Positions 1-12,551 of a stretch of 64,000 nt of DNA are shown here, piece after piece; position 1 is the stretch's first letter, and each line of letters opens with the position of its first letter. Source of the stretch: Escherichia coli. Its GTDB lineage: Bacteria > Pseudomonadota > Gammaproteobacteria > Enterobacterales > Enterobacteriaceae. The position numbers and the translations under genes are program-made. The notes under the pieces were generated by a model. The model was not told the origin of the DNA. It was given only the letters and a program-made list of their open reading frames with translations, and searched no databases. The stretch lies in the NCBI RefSeq assembly GCF_046105845.1, contig NZ_CP151004.1, one strand, 5' to 3'.

Positions 1-273
1 GGCGACAAACGCTGTAATTACCAGCGCCGGAACAGGGCCAGGCATTTTTTTTGCTGTTTTCACCTGATTTCGTTCAATTGTTTTATGTAAGGATTTTCCC
101 ATCAACGGTAATTTTGTCACTGCACGACCGACATTTCCGGCCTGTTTTCCTAAATGAACTCTTTCGGCTGCACCATATTTTTCGACAACGGTAATGAGAT
201 GTTCACACACCGTTGACTTGCCTGAACCATCGCTACCAATAACGGCAATTAATGGAGGTGTTATTGACTGCAT
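1..273 (-). CDS. yghT: P-loop NTPase (nucleotide-kinase-like), N-terminal part; gene continues beyond window start
   Basis: Minus-strand ATG at 273..271 preceded by AAGGA SD; translation [22 protein letters not shown]... carries a Walker A motif paralogous to the two downstream ORFs; position matches K-12 gene order (recalled). Confidence 0.7.
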
Positions 274-446
274 GAATATATCCTTTAATTTAAATATCCA
301 TTAAAAATATTTATTTGGTTAATATGTTTTTATGAAAGCGTAATTCAGGTCAATGTCACAATTAACCATTGTCACAATAAGGTTGAACGGATATTCTGAG
401 CACGGACCACGTAATATTCAATACATTATTTGCTGCCGGGTTTTTC

Positions 447-1160
447 GTGAATCAACGTAATATGTCAATAATTAATTCCACGCCAGTGCGTGTTATTGCC
501 ATTGTAGGATGTGATGGTTCAGGTAAATCGACCCTCACGGCAAGCCTGGTAAATGAACTGGCAGCAAGAATGCCAACAGAACACATTTATCTCGGGCAAT
601 CGTCCGGGCGAATTGGCGAATGGATTTCACAGCTCCCTGTTATTGGCGCACCTTTTGGGCGTTATTTGCGAAGTAAAGCGGCACATGTGCACGAAAAGCC
701 CTCAACACCGCCTGGCAATATTACTGCTCTGGTTATCTATCTGCTTTCCTGCTGGCGGGCGTACAAGTTTCGCAAAATGTTGTGTAAAAGCCAGCAAGGC
801 TTTCTGCTCATCACCGACCGCTACCCGCAGGTTGAAGTGCCGGGTTTTCGCTTTGATGGCCCGCAATTGGCAAAAACCACGGGCGGTAACGGTTGGATAA
901 AAATGTTAAGGCAGCGCGAGCTGAAGCTGTACCAATGGATGGCATCTTATTTGCCCGTATTGTTGATTCGTCTTGGCATTGATGAACAAACGGCGTTTGC
1001 GCGTAAACCTGACCACCAACTGGCAGCGTTACAGGAAAAAATCGCCGTTACGCCGCAACTGACATTCAATGGTGCAAAGATCCTTGAACTGGATGGTCGG
1101 CAACCAGCCGATGAAATTCTGCAAGCGTCACTACGCGCAATTCACGCCGCGCTTTCCTGA
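447..1160 (+). CDS. yghS: P-loop NTPase, nucleotide-kinase-like (237 aa)
   Basis: ORF track; Walker A GCDGSGKST near N-terminus, DRYP motif; paralog of neighbours; GTG start at 447 (alternative ATG at 462). Confidence 0.75.
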   Translation: MNQRNMSIINSTPVRVIAIVGCDGSGKSTLTASLVNELAARMPTEHIYLGQSSGRIGEWISQLPVIGAPFGRYLRSKAAHVHEKPSTPPGNITALVIYLLSCWRAYKFRKMLCKSQQGFLLITDRYPQVEVPGFRFDGPQLAKTTGGNGWIKMLRQRELKLYQWMASYLPVLLIRLGIDEQTAFARKPDHQLAALQEKIAVTPQLTFNGAKILELDGRQPADEILQASLRAIHAALS

Positions 1161-1191
1161 TCACCAAAATGGATAGGGGATGATTTAACGA

Positions 1192-1950
1192 ATGGATGCA
1201 CTACAAACACAAACTGTTATTAGTACAACCGCGCCGCAGCCCAGCTACATTCCGGGGCTAATTGCGGTGGTCGGGTGTGATGGCACCGGTAAATCCACAC
1301 TGACCACCGACCTGGTGAAATCGCTGCAACAACACTGGCAAACCGAGCGGCGCTATCTGGGGCTGCTCTCCGGCGAAGACGGCGACAAAATCAAACGATT
1401 GCCGTTGGTTGGCGTCTGGCTGGAACGGCGACTGGCGGCCAAATCCTCGAAAACCCAAAGCATGAAAACCAAATCTCCTGCGCTATGGGCGGCGGTGATT
1501 ATGTACTGCTTCTCGCTGCGAAGAATGGCGAATCTACGCAAGGTTCAGCGACTGGCGCAAAGTGGCGTTCTGGTGGTCAGCGATCGCTTCCCGCAGGCTG
1601 AAATTTCGGGCTTTTATTATGACGGACCGGGGATTGGCGTCGAACGTGCGACCGGGAAAATCAGCATGTTTCTGGCGCAGCGCGAACGGCGTTTATACCA
1701 ACAAATGGCGCAATACCGTCCTGAATTAATCATTCGTTTGGGGATTGATATTGATACTGCCATCTCCCGCAAGCCTGACCATGACTATGCCGAGCTGCAG
1801 GACAAAATCGGTGTTATGTCGACGATTGGCTATAACGGCACAAAAATTCTTGAGATTGATTCCAGAGCGCCCTACAGCGAAGTGCTGGAACAGGCACAGA
1901 AGGCGGTTTCTCTGGTTGCCATCGTTTCTGACCGCCGAAGTTTAACTTAA
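1192..1950 (+). CDS. yghR: P-loop NTPase, nucleotide-kinase-like (252 aa)
   Basis: ORF track; Walker A GCDGTGKST, DRFP motif; paralog of yghS/yghT. Confidence 0.75.
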   Translation: MDALQTQTVISTTAPQPSYIPGLIAVVGCDGTGKSTLTTDLVKSLQQHWQTERRYLGLLSGEDGDKIKRLPLVGVWLERRLAAKSSKTQSMKTKSPALWAAVIMYCFSLRRMANLRKVQRLAQSGVLVVSDRFPQAEISGFYYDGPGIGVERATGKISMFLAQRERRLYQQMAQYRPELIIRLGIDIDTAISRKPDHDYAELQDKIGVMSTIGYNGTKILEIDSRAPYSEVLEQAQKAVSLVAIVSDRRSLT

Positions 1951-1995
1951 GGCTGGCGGGATACTTTTTACTATCAACGATAAGGTCAGGCTGAA

Positions 1996-3345
1996 TTGGC
2001 GGGTTTTAACATCAAACATTGGTTTGCAGATGGCGCGTTTCGCACCATTATTCGCAATAGCGCCTGGTTAGGCTCCAGTAATGTCGTGAGCGCCTTGCTG
2101 GGTCTGTTGGCGCTCTCGTGTGCCGGTAAAGGGATGACGCCCGCCATGTTTGGCGTACTGGTGATTGTGCAATCGTACGCCAAGTCGATCAGCGATTTTA
2201 TTAAGTTTCAGACATGGCAGCTGGTGGTTCAGTACGGAACACCAGCATTAACCAACAATAATCCGCAGCAATTCCGCAATGTCGTCTCATTTTCCTTCTC
2301 GCTGGATATCGTCAGCGGCGCGGTGGCGATTGTCGGCGGCATTGCCTTACTCCCTTTTCTTTCCCATTCATTAGGTCTGGATGACCAAAGCTTTTGGCTG
2401 GCGGCGCTGTATTGCACGCTCATTCCTTCAATGGCTTCCTCCACGCCGACCGGCATTCTGCGTGCGGTAGATCGCTTCGATTTAATTGCTGTACAGCAGG
2501 CGACGAAACCTTTTCTGCGCGCAGCGGGGAGCGTCGTAGCCTGGTATTTTGACTTTGGTTTTGCGGGCTTTGTTATTGCCTGGTACGTGTCGAATCTGGT
2601 TGGCGGCACCATGTACTGGTGGTTTGCCGTGCGCGAATTACGCTGCAGAAATATCCATAACGCCTTCAAATTGAATCTGTTTGAGTCTGCCCGACACATT
2701 AAAGGCGCGTGGAGTTTTGTCTGGTCAACCAACATTGCCCACTCCATCTGGTCGGCACGTAACTCGTGCAGCACAGTGTTGGTGGGGATCGTGTTAGGAC
2801 CCGCTGCCGCCGGGTTATTTAAAATCGCCATGACATTCTTCGACGCCGCCGGAACGCCAGCGGGTTTACTGGGTAAAAGTTTTTACCCAGAGGTGATGCG
2901 TTTAGATCCGCGCACCACCAGACCGTGGTTGTTAGGCGTGAAGTCAGGTTTACTGGCGGGCGGAATCGGTATTCTGGTGGCGCTCGCGGTGTTGATCGTC
3001 GGCAAGCCGCTCATTTCGCTGGTGTTTGGCGTTAAGTATCTCGAAGCGTATGACCTGATTCAGGTGATGCTGGGCGCAATTGTGATTTCGATGCTGGGCT
3101 TCCCACAGGAGTCATTGCTATTGATGGCGGGAAAACAGCGTGCTTTTCTCGTGGCGCAAACCATCGCCTCAATCGGCTACATCGTATTGCTGTTCATGTT
3201 CTGTCATCTGTTTGGCGTGCTGGGGGCTGCATTTGCTTACTTCGCTGGGCAATGTCTGGATGTGGTGCTCTCGCTAATTCCAACCTTAAAGGCATTTTTT
3301 CAGCGCCATTCCTTGCTTTATAACGCAGCCGGAGAGAAATCCTGA
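1996..3345 (+). CDS. yghQ: Polytopic membrane protein, Wzx/MOP-type polysaccharide or lipid flippase-like (start uncertain, TTG at 1996)
   Basis: 449-aa ORF, highly hydrophobic with multiple predicted TM segments; position after yghR as in K-12 (recalled). Confidence 0.65.
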   Translation: MAGFNIKHWFADGAFRTIIRNSAWLGSSNVVSALLGLLALSCAGKGMTPAMFGVLVIVQSYAKSISDFIKFQTWQLVVQYGTPALTNNNPQQFRNVVSFSFSLDIVSGAVAIVGGIALLPFLSHSLGLDDQSFWLAALYCTLIPSMASSTPTGILRAVDRFDLIAVQQATKPFLRAAGSVVAWYFDFGFAGFVIAWYVSNLVGGTMYWWFAVRELRCRNIHNAFKLNLFESARHIKGAWSFVWSTNIAHSIWSARNSCSTVLVGIVLGPAAAGLFKIAMTFFDAAGTPAGLLGKSFYPEVMRLDPRTTRPWLLGVKSGLLAGGIGILVALAVLIVGKPLISLVFGVKYLEAYDLIQVMLGAIVISMLGFPQESLLLMAGKQRAFLVAQTIASIGYIVLLFMFCHLFGVLGAAFAYFAGQCLDVVLSLIPTLKAFFQRHSLLYNAAGEKS

Positions 3346-4169
3346 TGATGAGAAAATATTTCCCGCTTGAGGCTAGCGAGCGTCTATTTGTTGCGATTGA
3401 AGAAGATGATGTCGTTGATGCACAGGTCAGTTTGCCGCCGACTATCGCACTAAGTTGTACCACCGAAATCATCCATGATAATTACGCGTTATGCCTGAAA
3501 TTCTGGCTGGATGGTGTTAATCGTCAGGAGCTACTGCGTTTAATCCGCAAACAGGCGAAAGGCGATGAGCTGACGACAGACGAGCGCAAAAAGTATAAAT
3601 ACATGCGAGCGCGCTACAAGCACCTGCGTTTTGCGCAACGGCTGTATTTAAAGAAGCATCAGGCCGGATTTTTATTCGGCAAAACGACCGTTTTTTTGGG
3701 GCGTTTTCAGGACGGCTTTCGTAACGGTAAGAAAAATATTGTGTCGTATTACGGCAACCTGTTACGGGTTTATTTAAGCTCTTCGGTCTGGTCGTTGGTG
3801 AACTATTCATTACGCCATAGCCAGTTAGAAAGCGTAAGCGGTTTTATTGCCTATCGGCAAAAGCAAATGCATACCCTGAAAGAGATAATTGCCAAACCGC
3901 GACTAACTGGCAGGGAATTTCATGATGTGCGAAAAATCATCAGCCAGCAGGTTTCTTATTACGACACCCTAAGATCGCTTGATCCTGAAAATAAAGAGGC
4001 GTTACAGATTTCCCGCTTCCTCGCCGCCATTAATGGCCTGATGGGGGATAAACACGACGACATGGTGGCGGATGATATGGAAAACCGCCAGTCGTATGAT
4101 GCACCGGTGGCGCTGGATAGCGATATTCGCCAGCGCTTAGAGCTGCTGATTTCGCGTTTTCCGCTATAA
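3345..4169 (+). CDS. Hypothetical soluble protein (274 aa), basic, no recognisable motif
   Basis: ORF track; ATG overlaps yghQ stop (TGATG) suggesting translational coupling. Confidence 0.6.
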   Translation: MMRKYFPLEASERLFVAIEEDDVVDAQVSLPPTIALSCTTEIIHDNYALCLKFWLDGVNRQELLRLIRKQAKGDELTTDERKKYKYMRARYKHLRFAQRLYLKKHQAGFLFGKTTVFLGRFQDGFRNGKKNIVSYYGNLLRVYLSSSVWSLVNYSLRHSQLESVSGFIAYRQKQMHTLKEIIAKPRLTGREFHDVRKIISQQVSYYDTLRSLDPENKEALQISRFLAAINGLMGDKHDDMVADDMENRQSYDAPVALDSDIRQRLELLISRFPL

Positions 4170-4177
4170 CCGGAGCA

Positions 4178-4741
4178 ATGATGTCATCTCGTTTGATTAT
4201 TGCGCTGATTATCATGCTCTTAGCCCCGGGTGTGCAGGCACACAATTTCGTCACTGGCAAAACGGTTACCCCCGTTTATATCCAGGAAGGCGGTGAGTTG
4301 CTTCTGAATAGCGACGACGAAATTCACTACCAAAAGTGGAACAGCACACAGCTGGCGGGAAAAGTCCGCATTATTCAGTATATCGCCGGGCGTAAGTCGG
4401 CGAAGAAAAAGAACTCACTGTTAATTAAAGCGGTTGAAGCGGCAAACTTTCCGCAGGATCGTTTTCAGCCCACCACCATTGTGAACACCGATGATGCCAT
4501 CTTTGGTACTGGCTATTTTGTCGTTGGCAAAATCGAAAAAAATAAACGCCGCTATCCGTGGGCGCAATTCGTTATTGACGGCAATGGACTGGGACGCGTT
4601 GCCTGGCGGTTGCCGGAGCAGAGTTCAACCATTCTGGTGCTGAATAAAGACGGGCAAATTCAGTGGGCAAAGGACGGCAGCCTGACGCCGGAAGAGGTAG
4701 ATCATGTCATTGCGCTGGCGCAGAAACTGATCAATGAATAA
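4178..4741 (+). CDS. Secreted/periplasmic protein, YtfJ-like (187 aa)
   Basis: N-terminal signal peptide MMSSRLIIALIIMLLAPGVQA; overall similarity to the YtfJ periplasmic family as I recall it. Confidence 0.6.
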   Translation: MMSSRLIIALIIMLLAPGVQAHNFVTGKTVTPVYIQEGGELLLNSDDEIHYQKWNSTQLAGKVRIIQYIAGRKSAKKKNSLLIKAVEAANFPQDRFQPTTIVNTDDAIFGTGYFVVGKIEKNKRRYPWAQFVIDGNGLGRVAWRLPEQSSTILVLNKDGQIQWAKDGSLTPEEVDHVIALAQKLINE

Positions 4742-4771
4742 AAAATTCAAAGGATTGAGGGCGTTAGTGAG

Positions 4772-5842
4772 ATGAAGCTGGTTGAACACTACATCATGCG
4801 TGGTACGCGCCGTCTGGTGTTGATTATCGTCGGTTTTCTGATCTTTATTTTCGCCAGCTACTCCGCACAGCGTTATCTGGCCGAAGCGGCAAATGGGACA
4901 TTAGCTCTTGATGTTGTGCTGGATATCGTTTTCTACAAAGTGCTGATTGCACTGGAGATGCTGTTACCTGTTGGACTATATGCTTCAGTTGGCGTGACGC
5001 TAGGGCAAATGTATACCGACTCGGAAATTACCGCTATCTCCGCGGCGGGGGGCAGTCCGGGACGCTTGTACAAAGCCGTTCTTTATCTGGCGATACCGCT
5101 AAGTATTTTTGTCACCCTTCTGTCGATGTATGGTCGTCCGTGGGCTTATGCGCAGATTTATCAATTGGAGCAACAGTCACAGTCGGAGCTGGATGTTCGC
5201 CAGTTGCGGGCAAAGAAATTTAACACTAACGATAACGGACGAATGATCCTTTCGCAGACGGTTGATCAGGATAATAATCGCCTGACTGACGCGCTGATTT
5301 ATACTTCTACTGCCAATCGAACCCGCATTTTCCGCGCCCGTTCGGTTGATGTGGTTGACCCATCACCTGAGAAACCGACTGTTATGTTGCACAACGGCAC
5401 TGCCTATCTTCTCGATCATCAGGGGCGTGACGACAACGAACAGATCTACCGTAATCTGCAATTACATCTGAATCCGCTGGATCAAAGCCCTAACGTCAAA
5501 CGCAAAGCGAAATCGGTCACGGAGCTGGCGCGCTCCGTCTTTCCAGCCGATCATGCCGAACTGCAATGGCGACAAAGCCGTGGCCTGACAGCATTGTTGA
5601 TGGCGCTGCTGGCCATTTCATTAAGTCGGGTAAAACCGCGGCAAGGGCGATTTTCAACATTATTGCCACTGACGTTGCTGTTTATTGCCATTTTTTATGG
5701 CGGCGACGTCTGCCGTACGCTGGTGGCTAACGGCGCGATTCCCCTCATTCCTGGTTTGTGGTTAGTACCCGGACTCATGCTAATGGGCCTGCTGATGCTG
5801 GTCGCACGCGACTTCTCTTTGCTGCAGAAATTTTCCCGATGA
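4772..5842 (+). CDS. LptF-like permease (YjgP/YjgQ family) paralog
   Basis: 356-aa membrane protein; N-terminal TM block, central periplasmic domain, C-terminal TM block; conserved SEITAI motif as in LptF/LptG. Confidence 0.7.
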   Translation: MKLVEHYIMRGTRRLVLIIVGFLIFIFASYSAQRYLAEAANGTLALDVVLDIVFYKVLIALEMLLPVGLYASVGVTLGQMYTDSEITAISAAGGSPGRLYKAVLYLAIPLSIFVTLLSMYGRPWAYAQIYQLEQQSQSELDVRQLRAKKFNTNDNGRMILSQTVDQDNNRLTDALIYTSTANRTRIFRARSVDVVDPSPEKPTVMLHNGTAYLLDHQGRDDNEQIYRNLQLHLNPLDQSPNVKRKAKSVTELARSVFPADHAELQWRQSRGLTALLMALLAISLSRVKPRQGRFSTLLPLTLLFIAIFYGGDVCRTLVANGAIPLIPGLWLVPGLMLMGLLMLVARDFSLLQKFSR

Positions 5843-6918
5843 ATGTTTTCAGTCGCTATTTAATCCGTCATCTCTTTCTCGGTTTTGCCGCCGCCGCAGG
5901 ATTATTGCTGCCGCTTTTTACCACCTTCAACCTGATTAACGAACTGGATGATGTCAGCCCGGGCGGTTATCGCTGGACTCAGGCGGTGCTGGTGGTGCTG
6001 ATGACCTTACCGCGCACACTGGTCGAACTTTCGCCGTTTATCGCATTATTGGGAGGGATTGTTGGCCTGGGGCAGTTATCGAAAAACAGTGAGCTTACCG
6101 CTATTCGCAGCACTGGGTTTTCTATCTTCCGTATTGCACTGGTGGCGCTGGTTGCCGGGATATTGTGGACTGTTTCGTTAGGCGCGATAGATGAGTGGGT
6201 GGCGTCGCCATTGCAGCAACAGGCGCTGCAAATCAAATCGACTGCCACCGCGTTGGGGGAGGACGATGACATTACCGGCAATATGCTTTGGGCCAGGCGC
6301 GGTAATGAATTTGTGACGGTGAAATCGCTGAACGAGCAGGGCCAGCCTGTGGGCGTGGAGATATTTCATTATCGCGACGATCTCTCGCTCGAATCCTACA
6401 TTTTTGCACGCAGTGCCACCATTGAAGACGACAAAACGTGGATCCTGCATGGTGTGAATCATAAAAAATGGTTGAATGGCAAAGAAACGCTGGAAACATC
6501 AGATAATCTTGCCTGGCAATCGGCCTTCACCAGTATGGATCTTGAAGAGTTATCGATGCCGGGGAATACTTTTTCTGTCCGTCAGCTTAATCATTACATC
6601 CATTATTTGCAGGAAACCGGGCAACCCAGCAGCGATTACCGCCTTGCACTGTGGGAAAAACTGGGGCAACCCATCTTAACTCTGGCGATGATTTTGCTGG
6701 CTGTGCCGTTTACCTTTAGTGCCCCGCGTTCGCCTGGGATGGGTAGCCGTCTCGCTGTAGGCGTCATCGTGGGCTTACTCACCTGGATCAGCTATCAAAT
6801 CATGGTCAATCTGGGATTGCTATTTGCGTTGAGCGCACCTGTTACCGCGCTCGGTTTACCGATAGCGTTTGTGCTGGTGGCGTTGAGCCTGGTGTATTGG
6901 TATGACAGTCAACATTAA
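5839..6918 (+). CDS. LptG-like permease (YjgP/YjgQ family) paralog
   Basis: ATG at 5839 overlaps upstream stop (ATGA); MNVFSRYLIRH... with SELTAI motif; same topology as LptG. Confidence 0.7.
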   Translation: MNVFSRYLIRHLFLGFAAAAGLLLPLFTTFNLINELDDVSPGGYRWTQAVLVVLMTLPRTLVELSPFIALLGGIVGLGQLSKNSELTAIRSTGFSIFRIALVALVAGILWTVSLGAIDEWVASPLQQQALQIKSTATALGEDDDITGNMLWARRGNEFVTVKSLNEQGQPVGVEIFHYRDDLSLESYIFARSATIEDDKTWILHGVNHKKWLNGKETLETSDNLAWQSAFTSMDLEELSMPGNTFSVRQLNHYIHYLQETGQPSSDYRLALWEKLGQPILTLAMILLAVPFTFSAPRSPGMGSRLAVGVIVGLLTWISYQIMVNLGLLFALSAPVTALGLPIAFVLVALSLVYWYDSQH

Positions 6919-6952: not shown

Positions 6953-8125
6953 TTACTGCTTCAGAGTAGCAAATGCCTGAATGATGGCATCGATTTGCTC
7001 ACGACTGTGGGCAGCGTTTACGCTACAGCGCAGCAGCGTGATGCCTGCAGGCGCGGCAGGTGGCAGGATAAGATTCACATAAACGCCCAGCGAAATAAGC
7101 TCGCGCCAGATGCGTAAACCTTCCTCTTTCGAACCGATTATTACTGGCACTACCGGGCTAATATGTGAACTTAACTCGTAACCCAGTTTTTGCAGACCGT
7201 CATACAGATGGTTGGCGTTATCCATCAGCTTTTGCCGCAGCTCTGGTTGTGAGGCAATGGTTCTTAACGACGAGCGCACGGTCGCAATGCAGGACGGAGA
7301 AGGAGAGGCGGTAAAAATATACGGGCGGCTGCCGTAGCGCAGCACTTCCATCGCTTCCGAACCGACAGCAAAACCGCCAATCGAGGCCAGACTTTTACTG
7401 AAAGTACCAACGATAATATCCACATCATCTTCAACGCCAACGGCTTCAGCCAGTCCGCGCCCCATTGCGCCTAACACGCCAAACGAATGCGCTTCATCGA
7501 CAATCAAATAACCACCGAGACGACGTTTGATATCAACAATTTCCGCTAACGGCGCAACGTCACCGAGCATGCTGTAGATACCCTCAACGATGATAATCGC
7601 CTCTTTCGCCCGTTCACCGAGGCGAACCATGCGCCGTTCCAGATCTTTAGCATCGTTATGGCGGAAACGAATAATTTCCGCGCCACCGAGAGAACAGGCG
7701 TCATAAATACTGGCGTGGCTGTCGGCATCCAGTAACACCACGGCGTTATGGTCGGCAAGTGCGCTGATGACGCCTAAATTAGCGGTATAACCGGTTGAAA
7801 AAACGATAGCGGTAGGGCGATTAAAAAACTCGGCGATCTCTTTCTCTAACGCCAGATGCGGCGCATAACTGCCGTTTGCCATACGAGAACCGGTGGTGCC
7901 GGTGCCTTGGGCCGCTAACGCTGCCTGACCTTCGGCGATGGCATCATGATTGAAGGTTAATCCGAGATAATTATTGGTCCCGGCCAGAATCACTTTTTTA
8001 TTGCCGATCCGACCTTCGGTGGCGGAATACACTTCATCAATACAGGTACCAAACGGCGTTAACCCGTTGTCACTAAATTGCAGTCGCTCGCCAGCAAGGC
8101 GCGCATATTTATCGTATAGCCCCAT
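6953..8125 (-). CDS. PLP-dependent alpha-oxoamine synthase (serine palmitoyltransferase / BioF / Kbl family), 390 aa
   Basis: Motifs NNYLGL, GTFSKSL (PLP-lysine), DEAHSFG; start ATG overlaps upstream ACP stop (TAATG). Confidence 0.8.
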   Translation of the reverse strand: MGLYDKYARLAGERLQFSDNGLTPFGTCIDEVYSATEGRIGNKKVILAGTNNYLGLTFNHDAIAEGQAALAAQGTGTTGSRMANGSYAPHLALEKEIAEFFNRPTAIVFSTGYTANLGVISALADHNAVVLLDADSHASIYDACSLGGAEIIRFRHNDAKDLERRMVRLGERAKEAIIIVEGIYSMLGDVAPLAEIVDIKRRLGGYLIVDEAHSFGVLGAMGRGLAEAVGVEDDVDIIVGTFSKSLASIGGFAVGSEAMEVLRYGSRPYIFTASPSPSCIATVRSSLRTIASQPELRQKLMDNANHLYDGLQKLGYELSSHISPVVPVIIGSKEEGLRIWRELISLGVYVNLILPPAAPAGITLLRCSVNAAHSREQIDAIIQAFATLKQ

Positions 8126-8373
8126 TATTTATTCTCCAGCCATGGAAGTAGTGTTTCCATTAATTGCGCAGGGGTTTTGACATCCAGCAGAATATTAATA
8201 GGAATGGAAATATCGAATCTGTCTTCCAGCATCATTAAGAGATCCATCACTTTGATCGACTCCAGGCCAAGATCGTTGACGAGATCGCTGTCGGGCTTAA
8301 TTTCCACACCGTTTTCGACCAAATCCTGTAAACAGGAAAGGATGTAATCCATTACTATTTCACGATTTACCAT
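8125..8373 (-). CDS. Acyl carrier protein (82 aa)
   Basis: DLGLESIKVMDL phosphopantetheine-attachment motif; small acidic protein. Confidence 0.8.
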   Translation of the reverse strand: MVNREIVMDYILSCLQDLVENGVEIKPDSDLVNDLGLESIKVMDLLMMLEDRFDISIPINILLDVKTPAQLMETLLPWLENK

Positions 8374-8404: not shown

Positions 8405-9319
8405 TCAAAATAGCCCGTTGCGTAATGCGTGTTCCAGGCTAATCCCGGGAAACCAATTAATATCTTCAGAAATACGGTTATTACTTGCCGACCAGTCGGC
8501 ATGAGTTAATTCACGGATTTTCGAACGAGTCAGCATCGGTTCTTTACCCGCCAGACGGCTCAACGCGGTACTGATATCCGCAAGGCAGGTGAGTAGCGAC
8601 AGAGGAATACCGACCATCCGCACGGAACCACAACGGGCGTCGGCGGCAAGCTGTCTTACGCGTTGCCAGTCATAGCCGCCGGCGACGCCATCGCATAATT
8701 CATAGGTTTGCGTCTGTACAGTTTCGGCGCTTAACCACTGCCCCACGGCTTGCGCGAAATCGGTGACGTGCAGGAAAGAGAGCTGTGTCTCTGGCGCACC
8801 AAGTCGTGGCAGCAGGCCGCGCAGCATCCAGTCAAACAGCGGTTTTAACTCTTTATCGCCGGGACCATACACGGCTGTCGGGCGAAAAACGCCCAGCGTA
8901 ATTTCATCAGCCATTGCAGTCAGCCGTTGTTCGGCGACGTGTTTGGAATTTGCGTACCAGGAGAGTTCGGGATGGCGCGCCGCCAGCGAAGAGATAAACA
9001 GAAAACGTTGGCAAAAGCCGCTCTCTTTTGCCGCTTGCATCAGTCGCAGGCTGCCGTCAACGTTACAGCGGGTAAAAATCTCTTCTTTGTGCCCGCGCAC
9101 TTGCCCGGCGCAATGGACCACCGCGCTGGCTCCGGCAACCAGTTCGCTAAGTGAATGAGTATCTTCCAGAGAACCGCGCACCCAGATGAGATTGTCATTG
9201 ACGTGAGCGCGGGCAGTACGCGTCAATGTGCGAACGTGAAAGCCGCGGGCGAGCAGGTTATCGATAATATATTTACCGATAAACCCGGTAGCGCCCGTCA
9301 CCGCGACAGTTTGATTCAT
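8405..9319 (-). CDS. NAD(P)-dependent epimerase/dehydratase-family reductase (SDR fold), ~304 aa
   Basis: Rossmann motif VAVTGATGFIGKYII just after ATG at 9319; ATG overlaps upstream stop (ATGA); longer ORF-track start at 9529 rejected. Confidence 0.7.
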   Translation of the reverse strand: MNQTVAVTGATGFIGKYIIDNLLARGFHVRTLTRTARAHVNDNLIWVRGSLEDTHSLSELVAGASAVVHCAGQVRGHKEEIFTRCNVDGSLRLMQAAKESGFCQRFLFISSLAARHPELSWYANSKHVAEQRLTAMADEITLGVFRPTAVYGPGDKELKPLFDWMLRGLLPRLGAPETQLSFLHVTDFAQAVGQWLSAETVQTQTYELCDGVAGGYDWQRVRQLAADARCGSVRMVGIPLSLLTCLADISTALSRLAGKEPMLTRSKIRELTHADWSASNNRISEDINWFPGISLEHALRNGLF

Positions 9320-11037
9320 GCCAGGGATTCCTGCACATGAAGGCTTGCAGCATAAGCCTTCTGATAACGTTTTTTCGCTTCCGCACGGGCAGGCTTGCCG
9401 GAGGACGTTCGGGGAATACTGTGGGGCGGCAACAGATCGATAGCCGCTGTTACGCCAAATTCGCTTTGGATCCGTGCTACCAGCGCGTGGATAAGCTGCC
9501 CACGACGTTCTTCGTCGCTGATCCGACACTGGATCTGCAAAATGATTTTTTCCTGGGCGGTAACAAAAGCAATCGCATCGCCAGAATGAATTTCCGGTTC
9601 CTGTTCCGCAATATATTCAATATCCTGCGGCCAGATATTACGGCCACGAATAATAATCAGATCTTTAATGCGCCCGGTGACATACAGATAACCGTCCAGC
9701 AGATAACCGAGGTCGCCGGTGTCTAACCAGCCCGTCGCGGCAATCTCGTCTTGTGAAATCTGGTCGCCAAAGTAACCGCTCATCAGGCTAGGGCCGGAGA
9801 TGCAAATATGGCCTACCACACGTTCCGCGGCAGGTATACCTGCTTCATTGCGGATTTCAATGCCATGTTCTGGCAACGCTTTACCGCAGTTGACGAAAGT
9901 CGATACGGCGCGTGTTTCAGCACCCGGCGCGACGGCTTTGCCCTGATATTCAAGGATGTCGCGATCCACTTCGTTAACCACAACCCCGGAGGCTTCATCA
10001 GAGAAGCTGACAGCCAGCGCATTTTCTGCCAGTCCGTAGCACGGCATGAACGTTTTATCGTCAAAGTTAACCTGACGGAAACATTCAGCGAATTGATGGA
10101 GTTGTTCTGCGGAGATCGGCTCAGCACCAATACCAGCGACGCGCCAGCAGGATAGATCCAGTTCAGCGAGATCTTTTTCATTCACGCGGCGCTGGCACAA
10201 TTCATAGCCAAACGGCGGCGCAACGGAAACGGTGCCGCGATTTTTACTGATCAATTTAAGCCATTGCAGAGGACGCATGGCAAAATCCTGAGTGCGCAAA
10301 TAATCTACTGAGAGCTGCGTGGCGACGGGGGTCAGGAGAAAGCCGACCAGTCCCATATCATGGTAGAAAGGCAGCCAGGAGACGCAGCGGTCGCCAGGGC
10401 GTAATTTAATGCCATCGTGGCTTATAGCACGTAGATTAGCCATCACTTCGCGATGGGTGATAATGACGCCACGGGGAAAACGGGTGCTGCCGGAGGTGTA
10501 CTGGAGGTAGGCGATATCGTTCGGAACTGGATGCTGGAGTGCAACATCGGCTTCCGGTAATGCCTTAAACCAGGCGTGGCTTAAAACATGTAATTCGGGG
10601 TTGTTATGCGTAGCGGCATTGACCAGTGGCAACCACTCATCACCAGTGATAATGGCTGCGGGCTGGCAACTTGTCAGTAAACCCTGCAGTTTGGCGCTCC
10701 AGGAATCCCGCTGACCGACGCCCATTGGAATCGCCAACGGGACGGCGACTAAGCCGGCATACTGGCAGGAAAAAAAAGCCTCTACGAACCCGCTACTGGT
10801 TTCGGCAATCAGCGCCACGCGATCGCCTTTTTTCAGGTTCAGCGATAACAACCGCTTCGCACCAGCTTCGGCACGCGCTTTTAACGTCTGATATTCCAGT
10901 TGATCTTCAAGTTGGCAACGTCTGTCATAAAAATTCATTCCGGCGCTACTCAGAGCGGCGTAGTCCAAAGCATCAACCAGCGTTGGAAAATCGGCATAGC
11001 GCATAGGTAGGGAATGCGTAAAGATTTTATTAGACAT
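9316..11037 (-). CDS. Fatty acyl-AMP ligase / acyl-ACP synthetase (AMP-binding superfamily), ~573 aa
   Basis: AMP-binding signature YTSGSTRFPRGV; N-terminus MSNKIFTHSLPMRYADF typical of FAAL-type enzymes; ATG at 11037. Confidence 0.75.
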   Translation of the reverse strand: MSNKIFTHSLPMRYADFPTLVDALDYAALSSAGMNFYDRRCQLEDQLEYQTLKARAEAGAKRLLSLNLKKGDRVALIAETSSGFVEAFFSCQYAGLVAVPLAIPMGVGQRDSWSAKLQGLLTSCQPAAIITGDEWLPLVNAATHNNPELHVLSHAWFKALPEADVALQHPVPNDIAYLQYTSGSTRFPRGVIITHREVMANLRAISHDGIKLRPGDRCVSWLPFYHDMGLVGFLLTPVATQLSVDYLRTQDFAMRPLQWLKLISKNRGTVSVAPPFGYELCQRRVNEKDLAELDLSCWRVAGIGAEPISAEQLHQFAECFRQVNFDDKTFMPCYGLAENALAVSFSDEASGVVVNEVDRDILEYQGKAVAPGAETRAVSTFVNCGKALPEHGIEIRNEAGIPAAERVVGHICISGPSLMSGYFGDQISQDEIAATGWLDTGDLGYLLDGYLYVTGRIKDLIIIRGRNIWPQDIEYIAEQEPEIHSGDAIAFVTAQEKIILQIQCRISDEERRGQLIHALVARIQSEFGVTAAIDLLPPHSIPRTSSGKPARAEAKKRYQKAYAASLHVQESLA

Positions 11038-11408
11038 ATACACCACGAAAAAATTGGATATCAAAAATAAAATGACAATAATGCGGTGGATTATATAGGC
11101 ATAAAAGATAAATGAGATAGTATTTTCATCAGTGTGAAAATGAACATTGATTTAAATAATGAGTTTGAGTTTTTTTGTTTTTATTGTGAATGATATTTAA
11201 TTTATGAATATATTAAGAATAAGCCTTGTCCGGTCGCCTTAAATCGACAAAAGGCATTGTGGCGCTTCTGTGTAGTCTCTAACCTTATCGTAATCATTAA
11301 TAAATACTATTTATTCGTCGTTTGTATTCATTGGGTTGATTATTAAGGTGCCGTTCGTTGCTGTTGCAACCTGTTTGTCACCGTTAATTATTTGTTACCC
11401 ACAGAACT
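11038..11408. promoter_or_regulatory. AT-rich divergent intergenic region between the FAAL operon and yghO (promoters inferred, not mapped)
   Basis: 371 bp with long A/T runs between divergently oriented start codons. Confidence 0.4.
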
Positions 11409-12551
11409 ATGGAATGCGATCTGCTGATGATTAAAATTGAAAAAGTAATTAATAAAAATGACCTTAAGGCATTTATCGCTTTTCCGTCATCACTTTATCC
11501 CGACGATCCAAACTGGATACCCCCTTTATTCATTGAACGCAACGAGCATTTGTCTGCGAAAAATCCGGGGACGGACCATATCATCTGGCAGGCGTGGGTG
11601 GCAAAAAAAGCGGGGCAGATAGTTGGGCGTATTACCGTGCAAATAGATACCTTGCACCGCGAGCGTTACGGTGAAGATACCGGTCATTTCGGCATGATTG
11701 ACGCCATTGATGATCCGCAGGTTTTTGCCGCGTTGTTTGGCGCAGCGGAAGCGTGGTTGAAGTCACAAGGTGCAAGTAAGATCAGCGGTCCTTTCAGCCT
11801 GAATATCAATCAGGAAAGCGGATTACTGATTGAAGGTTTCGATACACCACCCTGTGCGATGATGCCGCACGGTAAACCGTGGTATGCCGCGCATATTGAA
11901 CAATTGGGTTATCACAAAGGCATTGATTTACTAGCGTGGTGGATGCAGCGAACCGATCTCACTTTCTCTCCGGCGCTAAAAAAACTGATGGATCAGGTGC
12001 GTAAGAAGGTGACCATTCGCTGCATCAATCGCCAGCGGTTTGCCGAAGAGATGCAGATCCTGCGTGAGATTTTCAACTCTGGCTGGCAGCACAACTGGGG
12101 ATTTGTGCCGTTTACCGAACATGAATTCGCGACTATGGGCGATCAACTTAAATATCTGGTGCCGGACGATATGATCTACATCGCTGAGATTGATTCTGCA
12201 CCCTGCGCGTTTATTGTTGGCTTGCCAAACATCAACGAGGCGATTGCCGATCTGAACGGATCGCTCTTTCCCTTCGGCTGGGCAAAATTGCTGTGGCGTT
12301 TAAAAGTCAGCGGTGTGCGTACTGCGCGAGTACCGCTGATGGGCGTGCGGGACGAGTATCAGTTTAGCCGCATCGGCCCGGTGATTGCGCTGTTATTGAT
12401 TGAAGCCTTACGCGATCCGTTTGCCCGCCGGAAGATCGATGCGCTGGAAATGTCATGGATCCTCGAAACCAATACAGGCATGAATAACATGCTGGAACGC
12501 ATTGGGGCAGAGCCGTACAAGCGTTACCGATTGTATGAAAAGCAGATTTGA
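11409..12551 (+). CDS. yghO: YghO-like protein (380 aa), candidate acyltransferase; function unverified
   Basis: ORF track; position between lipid operon and glcC as for K-12 yghO (recalled); no motif I can assign confidently. Confidence 0.6.
   Translation: MECDLLMIKIEKVINKNDLKAFIAFPSSLYPDDPNWIPPLFIERNEHLSAKNPGTDHIIWQAWVAKKAGQIVGRITVQIDTLHRERYGEDTGHFGMIDAIDDPQVFAALFGAAEAWLKSQGASKISGPFSLNINQESGLLIEGFDTPPCAMMPHGKPWYAAHIEQLGYHKGIDLLAWWMQRTDLTFSPALKKLMDQVRKKVTIRCINRQRFAEEMQILREIFNSGWQHNWGFVPFTEHEFATMGDQLKYLVPDDMIYIAEIDSAPCAFIVGLPNINEAIADLNGSLFPFGWAKLLWRLKVSGVRTARVPLMGVRDEYQFSRIGPVIALLLIEALRDPFARRKIDALEMSWILETNTGMNNMLERIGAEPYKRYRLYEKQI

Follow-up and report, generated by a model that had tools for sequence, protein, structure and literature searches.

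The divergent A/T-rich control region of the dihydroceramide gene module in Escherichia coli and its plausible silencing by H-NS

Escherichia coli is usually described as sphingolipid-free. The 64-kb stretch of E. coli DNA analyzed here (hereafter, the window) contains the five genes of a dihydroceramide module, arranged around a strongly A/T-rich spacer. The question raised by this locus is whether the spacer is the control region of the module and whether its composition is connected with the silence of these genes in the laboratory.

The module itself, with aasR-epi-acpR-spt on one strand and yghO divergent from them, was already described in E. coli B/BL21, and the AcpR, AasR and SPT proteins of BL21(DE3) were assayed biochemically (PMC9386255). 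The orthologues in that strain are ECD_02850 (yghO), ECD_02851 (aasR), ECD_02852 (epi), ECD_02853 (acpR) and ECD_02854 (spt) (PMC9386255). All five genes of the ceramide cluster (spt, acpR, aasR, epi and aca) were found to be annotated and syntenic at the locus under study. The BL21(DE3) locus is co-linear with the window and its spacer is 99% identical, differing in three SNPs and one 5-bp duplication. The 371-bp spacer (11,038–11,408) is bounded by the start codons of aasR (fatty acyl-AMP ligase, minus strand, ATG at 11,037) and yghO (plus strand, ATG at 11,409), both of which are annotated by RefSeq in genomes with up to 100% identity to the window. The preliminary description had placed this segment between a FAAL operon and yghO, and had read it as a divergent control region of a lipid locus. 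The limits agree with the annotation, the word operon is reasonable for four minus-strand genes that overlap or lie at most 31 nt apart, and aasR-epi-acpR-spt and yghO indeed stand back to back. There is little doubt that the sphingolipid module has its divergent control region in this spacer. The features of the locus are listed in Table 1.

Table 1. Features in and around the aasR–yghO spacer, in positions of the window (a dot: no strand assigned)
Feature	Position	Strand	Description
spt	6953–8125	-	serine palmitoyltransferase; last gene of the operon
acpR	8125–8373	-	specialised acyl carrier protein, 249 nt, 82 aa
epi	8405–9319	-	NAD-dependent epimerase/dehydratase family; presumptive keto-sphinganine reductase
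aasR	9316–11037	-	fatty acyl-AMP ligase-type, AcpR-specific acyl-ACP synthetase; gene 1 of the operon
Divergent intergenic control region	11038–11408	.	371 bp, 31% GC; gap between aasR and yghO
Conserved aasR-proximal block	11038–11135	-	read as core promoter, leader of about 46 nt and ribosome-binding site
Predicted sigma-70 promoter of aasR	11090–11118	-	-35 ATCTCA 11118–11113, 17-bp spacer, -10 TATAAT 11095–11090
Extreme A/T core	11136–11220	.	16.5% GC; includes a T7/T5 run of varying length
Candidate distal promoter of yghO	11186–11214	+	-35 GTGAAT 11186–11191, 17-bp spacer, -10 TATATT 11209–11214
Variable GC-richer islet	11221–11290	.	48.6% GC; highest diversity of the spacer, 0.30
yghO-proximal elements	11364–11397	+	weak promoter-like pair, TTGCAA 11364–11369, 16-bp spacer, AATTAT 11386–11391
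yghO	11409–12551	+	GNAT-type N-acyltransferase, 'aca', candidate bacterial ceramide synthase

Some observations concern the genes themselves. The start of aasR differs between RefSeq records, being either the ATG at 11,037 (574 aa) or an in-frame ATG at 11,004 (562 aa), and the ORF in other genera has five further upstream codons (MAALYMSETS...). Near the five ceramide genes, many genera carry yghT/S/R (P-loop kinases), yghQ (MOP flippase), a gene for a 274-aa protein, YtfJ and a second LptF/LptG pair; in the E. coli window these accessory genes occupy positions 1–6918. It is plausible that these accessory genes provide head-group modification and export steps for the lipid.

The strong A/T richness noted in the preliminary description was reproduced: the GC content of the spacer is 31.0%, versus 51.8% for the whole window, and the A/T run cited there was located at 11,147–11,218. 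Only 0.54% of the 371-bp segments of the window are as A/T-rich. The composition is uneven, with 22.4% GC at 11,038–11,220, 48.6% at 11,221–11,290 and 33.9% at 11,291–11,408, and the lowest GC of the whole 64 kb at both the 100-bp scale (18%, from position 11,117) and the 183-bp scale lies in the spacer. Another very A/T-rich stretch of the window, at 53,900–54,270, has 25% GC over 183 bp. For comparison, 35 annotated intergenic spacers of at least 60 bp were taken from two 40-kb E. coli stretches (about 81 kb). Their median GC is 43%, and the spacer ranks eighth lowest; its low GC content is shared by others. The spacer is more A/T-rich than its flanking genes in each of 44 loci that were measured, by 6–27 percentage points in Enterobacterales and by 6–13 points in the three loci of the Pseudomonas group.

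The main rival to a reading in terms of H-NS is a pair of ordinary activator-dependent divergent promoters that lack their inducing signal in the laboratory. The A/T richness would then reflect promoter architecture (-10 and UP-like elements, easy melting, and sites for Fis, IHF or a local regulator) together with relaxed constraint, and H-NS would play little or no part. This is a real possibility, although a doubtful one on balance. It is favored by the comparison set of about 81 kb, in which seven of the 35 intergenic regions are equally or more A/T-rich; against it, 18–22% GC over 100–183 bp is the extreme of the window and lies below that of a proven H-NS target, the left part of the spacer being lower in GC at this scale than the sslE promoter region.

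Sequence variation was assessed in an alignment of nine Escherichia alleles. Nucleotide diversity over 11,038–11,135 is 0.030, as against 0.12–0.16 at third codon positions of the flanking genes; this 98-bp block is about five times more conserved than synonymous sites and hardly varies even in the allele with only 88% overall identity. A weight-matrix scan placed its highest-scoring minus-strand promoter here (score 10.3), with a predicted start near 11,083 and a leader of about 46 nt. The candidate combines a perfect -10 element, TATAAT, with a weak -35 element that matches at only three of six positions, which is why a stricter promoter scan missed it. The alignment points to purifying selection on the putative aasR promoter segment. 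On the opposite strand, the distal yghO candidate (score 10.0) has a predicted start near 11,221, giving a 188-nt leader, and it coincides with a conserved islet at 11,180–11,219, where diversity is 0.08–0.10 compared with 0.22–0.26 in its flanks. The yghO-proximal pair scored 7.5, with a predicted start near 11,398. The matrix values are approximate; with them, the whole window has 0.41 sites per kb per strand at a score of 9 or more. In this way, -35/-10 pairs of the sigma-70 type were predicted on either strand, at plausible distances from the two start codons. The joint claim that the spacer serves the module as its divergent promoter region, with the leftward promoter inside the conserved block, can be made with high confidence. 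The form of the aasR candidate, with its perfect -10 and its -35 matching at half of the positions, is typical of activator-dependent promoters and counts in favor of the activator alternative.

The start codon of yghO common to all genera is the ATG at 11,427 (MIKIE...), which elsewhere is preceded by TAAGG-N7. In Escherichia this Shine-Dalgarno sequence is replaced or lost, and the upstream ATG at 11,409 annotated by RefSeq also stands without a good one; translation of yghO may be poor in Escherichia. Immediately 5' of the annotated start, at 11,400–11,404, there is a 5-bp tandem-duplication polymorphism (ACAGA), present in one copy in the window and in two copies in BL21(DE3), CFT073 and strain G1/2.

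A scan of the spacer with 19 consensus sequences (CRP, Fur, FNR, IHF, PhoP, PhoB, RcsAB, CpxR, ArcA, Lrp, LexA, FadR, OmpR, Fis, sigma-54, sigma-E, NagC, SlyA and LeuO) gave matches above simulations only for ArcA and, marginally, for FadR and RcsAB. One natural allele has a 7-bp deletion that removes the FadR-like site. The ArcA-like site, GTTAATTATTTGTTA at 11,383–11,397, matches the direct-repeat consensus at 13 of 15 positions and is better than 99% of composition-matched simulations; 19 motifs were tried, so that the nominal value of 0.01 becomes about 0.2 after correction. The site overlaps the box TTAATTATTTGTTA (11,385–11,398), which also overlaps the proximal yghO candidate and is invariant in five alleles, one of them the 88%-identical one. 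A specific repressor acting at this position 5' of yghO, for example phosphorylated ArcA, would tie the N-acylation of ceramide to oxygen or redox state. Such a repressor would fit the quality of the match, the invariance of the box and its overlap with the proximal -10-like hexamer of yghO. However, the match is subject to the correction just given, the invariance could simply reflect the -10 region, and the box is conserved in Escherichia only; we consider this explanation quite improbable. The scan also counts against the activator alternative, as it gave no convincing site for a known regulator in the spacer.

The central part of the spacer is highly variable. From 11,136 to about 11,340, diversity among the nine alleles is 0.15–0.37, exceeding the synonymous level, and identity to the window over 11,136–11,340 drops to 65–71% in three alleles. 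Between some strains (TUM18530, SCPM-O-B-8794) this part is 29–35% different, with about 5% for the flanking genes; the pattern points to allelic replacement by recombination or to unusually fast divergence. It resembles the faster diversification reported for H-NS-bound DNA (PMC4720273). The GC content of 11,136–11,220 is held at 16.5–22.4% in nine of nine alleles. In the adjacent islet, at 11,221–11,290, GC varies between 36 and 54% across the same alleles, and this islet is single-copy in E. coli genomes. Conservation of the core in composition and not in sequence argues for a structural reader, one that reads composition, rather than a sequence-specific one, and this weighs against the activator alternative. 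The conserved 98-bp aasR block with its TATAAT and the core of 16–22% GC, conserved in composition while its sequence diverges, are the new observations of this work.

High-confidence H-NS regions identified by ChIP-chip have a mean of 61.4% A/T versus 49.2% for random regions (Lang et al. 2007). The spacer itself is 69% A/T and the 500 bp centred on it are 68% A/T, which is above that mean; the enrichment in A/T holds for the spacer only, the flanking genes having 50–55% GC. The same window contains, 11 kb from the spacer, the promoter of sslE (yghJ) and its T2SS, which is bound and repressed by H-NS and StpA in a temperature-dependent manner (PMC5012682). The two regions are alike in that the sslE promoter also has an A/T-rich upstream region (about 480 bp, about 26–30% GC) and nearly the same frequency of TpA steps (0.102, and 0.100 in the spacer; 2.3 times the window mean), and in that it serves an accessory envelope function lost or silenced in K-12. 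They differ in that H-NS/StpA binding and derepression are experimental for sslE and putative for the spacer. They differ also in the H-NS nucleation motif (tCGATAAATT-like), which was searched for with a matrix built from Lang's 11 footprinted sites: sslE, used as a control, has five matches of at least 8 bits and the spacer has none. The 13 sites of at least 6 bits in the spacer are not above the expectation from composition (8.7 ± 3.1 in composition-matched simulations), and A-tract helical phasing, taken as a proxy for curvature, gave no signal there. A high-affinity motif is not obligatory for H-NS binding; its absence from the spacer is one of the points in favor of activator-dependent promoters.

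H-NS and StpA ChIP-seq data were published for strain CFT073 (PMC9765446), the spacer of which is 99% identical to that of the window and lies at 3,544,845–3,545,254 of NC_004431.1, with acpR at 3,547,885–3,548,133. In the gene-level values, c3714 (0.216), yghS (0.141) and yghT (0.207) exceed the cut-off of 0.07 for H-NS and were scored as H-NS/StpA-bound; for c3714, the StpA value is 0.187 against the same cut-off, and deletion of hns lowers the H-NS value to 0.04 (PMC9765446). The gene c3714 was identified as acpR, which is the sole annotated 249-nt gene in the interval of the table; the count of locus tags from kpsM (c3698) fits. An assignment of c3714 to an ORF within the spacer was rejected, since no 249-nt ORF fits there. 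Neither aasR nor yghO is on the list of H-NS-bound genes of CFT073 (PMC9765446). As to the enrichment in related strains that the preliminary description had proposed to look for, the tabulated values are per gene: at this level, acpR, yghS and yghT are bound, and the two genes flanking the spacer are not listed. For the activator alternative, these data cut both ways, as aasR and yghO were not scored as bound but H-NS/StpA are demonstrably present on other parts of the cluster.

Two side observations concern the bound genes. acpR is only moderately A/T-rich (41% GC in CFT073), yet its H-NS/StpA signal is comparable to that of leuO, which is unexpected for its composition. The yghT-yghS spacer (about 246–445 of the window) is a second A/T-rich divergent spacer of the cluster, with about 30% GC over 173 bp, and both genes flanking it are H-NS- and StpA-bound in CFT073.

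For calibration, the part of the per-gene ChIP values that covers the first 133 kb of CFT073 (PMC9765446) was combined with the sequence. Within this part, the leuL-leuO spacer (32.4% GC) has H-NS-bound flanking genes. The caiT-fixA spacer (472 bp, 31.4% GC) has flanking-gene H-NS IP/Input values of 5.6 and 6.6 against a background of about 0.6, that is, 8–10 times background and still below the cut-off for bound genes. The dapB-carA spacer (455 bp, 31.9% GC) gave 0.72 and 0.73, which means no signal. The caiT-fixA case, within the portion covered, indicates that an unbound call for flanking genes is compatible with an occupied spacer, and because its flanking genes also fall below the cut-off, the absence of aasR and yghO from the list is weak counter-evidence. 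The likeness of caiT-fixA to the spacer studied here extends to its divergent layout, its lowest 100 bp (23% GC) and its flanking genes of native GC; it differs in its other regulators and pathway and in being present in K-12. The dapB-carA case indicates, for the same portion of the data, that composition alone is no guarantee of H-NS occupancy; it favors the activator alternative by showing that such a spacer can be free of H-NS. In the literature searched, neither expression values of the locus in hns mutants nor mapped transcription starts (5' RACE included) were found, and PMC9765446 was the only source of usable H-NS ChIP data. In our judgment, H-NS/StpA probably occupy the A/T core of the spacer in vivo, and silencing of the spacer by H-NS is plausible. 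That H-NS would be the main reason for the silence of the module is a more tentative claim, leaning slightly to the doubtful side.

The silence itself is best documented in BL21(DE3). No 3-oxo-sphinganine was formed from its chromosomal genes, and SPT, AcpR and AasR all had to be over-expressed from plasmids; plasmid-borne SPT alone, or AcpR/AasR alone, did not rescue (PMC9386255). The suggestion in the preliminary description that the locus may be cryptic under laboratory conditions fits this strain, which has a 99%-identical spacer and no sphingoid product without plasmids (PMC9386255). Once 3-oxo-sphinganine was supplied, sphinganine- and ceramide-like spots appeared, which the authors attributed 'possibly' to chromosomal epi and yghO (PMC9386255). 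If this attribution is right, the silence is incomplete. Low constitutive transcription of a module that is not cryptic at all would also be compatible with these spots, the missing lipid in BL21(DE3) then being due to, for example, poor translation or substrate supply, and Escherichia yghO indeed stands without the TAAGG Shine-Dalgarno sequence conserved in other genera. However, the failures of SPT alone and of AcpR/AasR alone indicate that chromosomal acpR/aasR and spt are each functionally absent in the culture conditions used, and epi shares an operon with these genes. A non-cryptic module is in our opinion very improbable.

The explanation that we put forward for the silence combines weak promoters with H-NS. 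Both promoters of the dihydroceramide module would be intrinsically weak, with poor -35 elements and, for yghO in Escherichia, no good Shine-Dalgarno sequence; both would be embedded in DNA coated by H-NS/StpA on account of its composition, and the module would stay off in ordinary culture until some activator or anti-silencer acts. We regard this overall explanation, with weak divergent promoters silenced by H-NS/StpA on the A/T-rich spacer, as evenly balanced between right and wrong.

A more elaborate form can be drawn by analogy with bgl and proU, where H-NS acts through upstream and downstream elements. The A/T core and the patch in acpR, 2.7 kb downstream, might together form a bridged silencer of this type, opened by a signal from the host or the envelope, perhaps a redox signal acting on the ArcA-like box; this is unlikely. 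The likeness lies in an A/T-rich promoter region, in a second H-NS-occupied patch that in CFT073 falls within the operon, on acpR, in the phenotypic silence of the operon in the laboratory, and in IS elements inserted nearby. The module differs from proU in that the defined high-affinity H-NS sites of the latter (TCGATATATT) are absent from the spacer. As a further difference, we know of no activating IS or mutant alleles of the sphingolipid module. Bridging between the spacer and acpR patches is speculation.

Other functions of the spacer were looked for as well. Rfam gave no match in or around it at E-values up to 1, nor in the spacers of eight other genera; the predicted leaders fold no better than shuffled sequences (z = -0.16 and 0.01), and the islet at 11,221–11,290 shows no significant RNA structure (z = 0.0). 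A cis-regulatory RNA (riboswitch or leader) was rejected on these grounds. A hidden small gene was rejected too, since the largest ORFs of the spacer encode 29–32 aa and no ORF is common to the 600–1100-bp spacers of other genera. The repeats and palindromes found in the spacer are merely short A/T-driven chance matches. Cross-genus footprinting revealed conservation only in the ribosome-binding and translation-start regions of aasR and yghO.

To evaluate the inheritance of the module, its distribution was considered. A 651-bp segment around the spacer was found in 4544 of 5426 complete E. coli genomes and is essentially full-length in 4132 (about 76–84%). The divergent five-gene arrangement next to glcC is also present in the Escherichia cryptic clades and E. 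whittamii, and with different outer neighbors it occurs in about 40 other species (45 loci, Enterobacterales and Pseudomonas). These carriers include Shimwellia, Citrobacter, Pseudocitrobacter, Pluralibacter, Serratia, Erwinia, Pantoea, Tatumella, Rosenbergiella, Hafnia, Cedecea, Sodalis, Klebsiella indica, Pseudomonas and Stutzerimonas. Homologues of yghQ/R/S, ytfJ, the 274-aa protein and the LptF/G-like permease lie in varying order within the 8-kb flanks of many loci. The GC content of the module genes tracks each host, being 44–62% across loci and 50–55% in E. coli; with this host-like GC the module is no classic A/T-rich foreign island. The locus had been called horizontally acquired. This is borne out by the patchy occurrence across Enterobacterales and Pseudomonas, but not by the state in Escherichia, with a fixed site, about 76–84% of genomes and host-like GC. 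The module appears to be patchily inherited, in a way that would fit old transfers, and looks ancestral in Escherichia. In the assembly of the Gram-positive Macrococcus sp. DPC7161, a 430-bp contig with 0.8x coverage encodes a fragment 99% identical to E. coli YghO; this contig is almost certainly contaminating E. coli DNA. A fluoride riboswitch lies a few kb from the module copy of Pluralibacter gergoviae, unrelated to the spacer.

K-12 lacks the spacer: IS5 stands at the TTAA at 11,449–11,452, and all DNA between that point and the middle of yghQ is missing. The element abuts yghO 41 bp inside the gene, at a TTAA that fits the YTAR target, and on its other side lies in the truncated yghQ; the annotated N-terminus of K-12 YghO is consequently encoded by junction sequence. 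K-12 has lost the whole module through an IS5-linked deletion. In isolate AF40, the best genome match over the spacer, IS4 is inserted in yghO (at about 11,625 of the window), and in CFT073 an IS4 stands in place of sslE and most of the T2SS. Insertion sequences are frequently active around these A/T-rich spacers. According to a report cited in PMC11677980, IS5 prefers H-NS-bound A/T-rich DNA, and the IS5 and IS4 insertions beside the spacer fit this.

The same five enzyme families are found in Caulobacter crescentus (spt CC_1162, acpR CC_1163, epi CC_1164, aasR CC_1165 and aca CC_1154), and among the Rhodobacteria compared, all five are clustered only in E. coli B and Caulobacter (PMC9386255). 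The two systems differ in gene order, in the divergent placement of yghO, and in output, its lipids being constitutive and those of BL21(DE3) absent (PMC9386255). The regulation of the Caulobacter genes is not transferable to the E. coli module. The locus and its enzymes are already published, their regulation is not, and an A/T-rich divergent promoter that possibly binds H-NS is in itself a routine sequence feature.

About three quarters of complete E. coli genomes hold all five dihydroceramide genes, and the products work when over-expressed (PMC9386255). The spacer, which is small and has a clearly conserved promoter block, offers a handle on why the sphingolipid genes of E. coli are silent. 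If the spacer and acpR did form a bridged silencer, the trait would be invisible in K-12 because IS5 deleted the module there, and most natural E. coli would be conditional sphingolipid producers.
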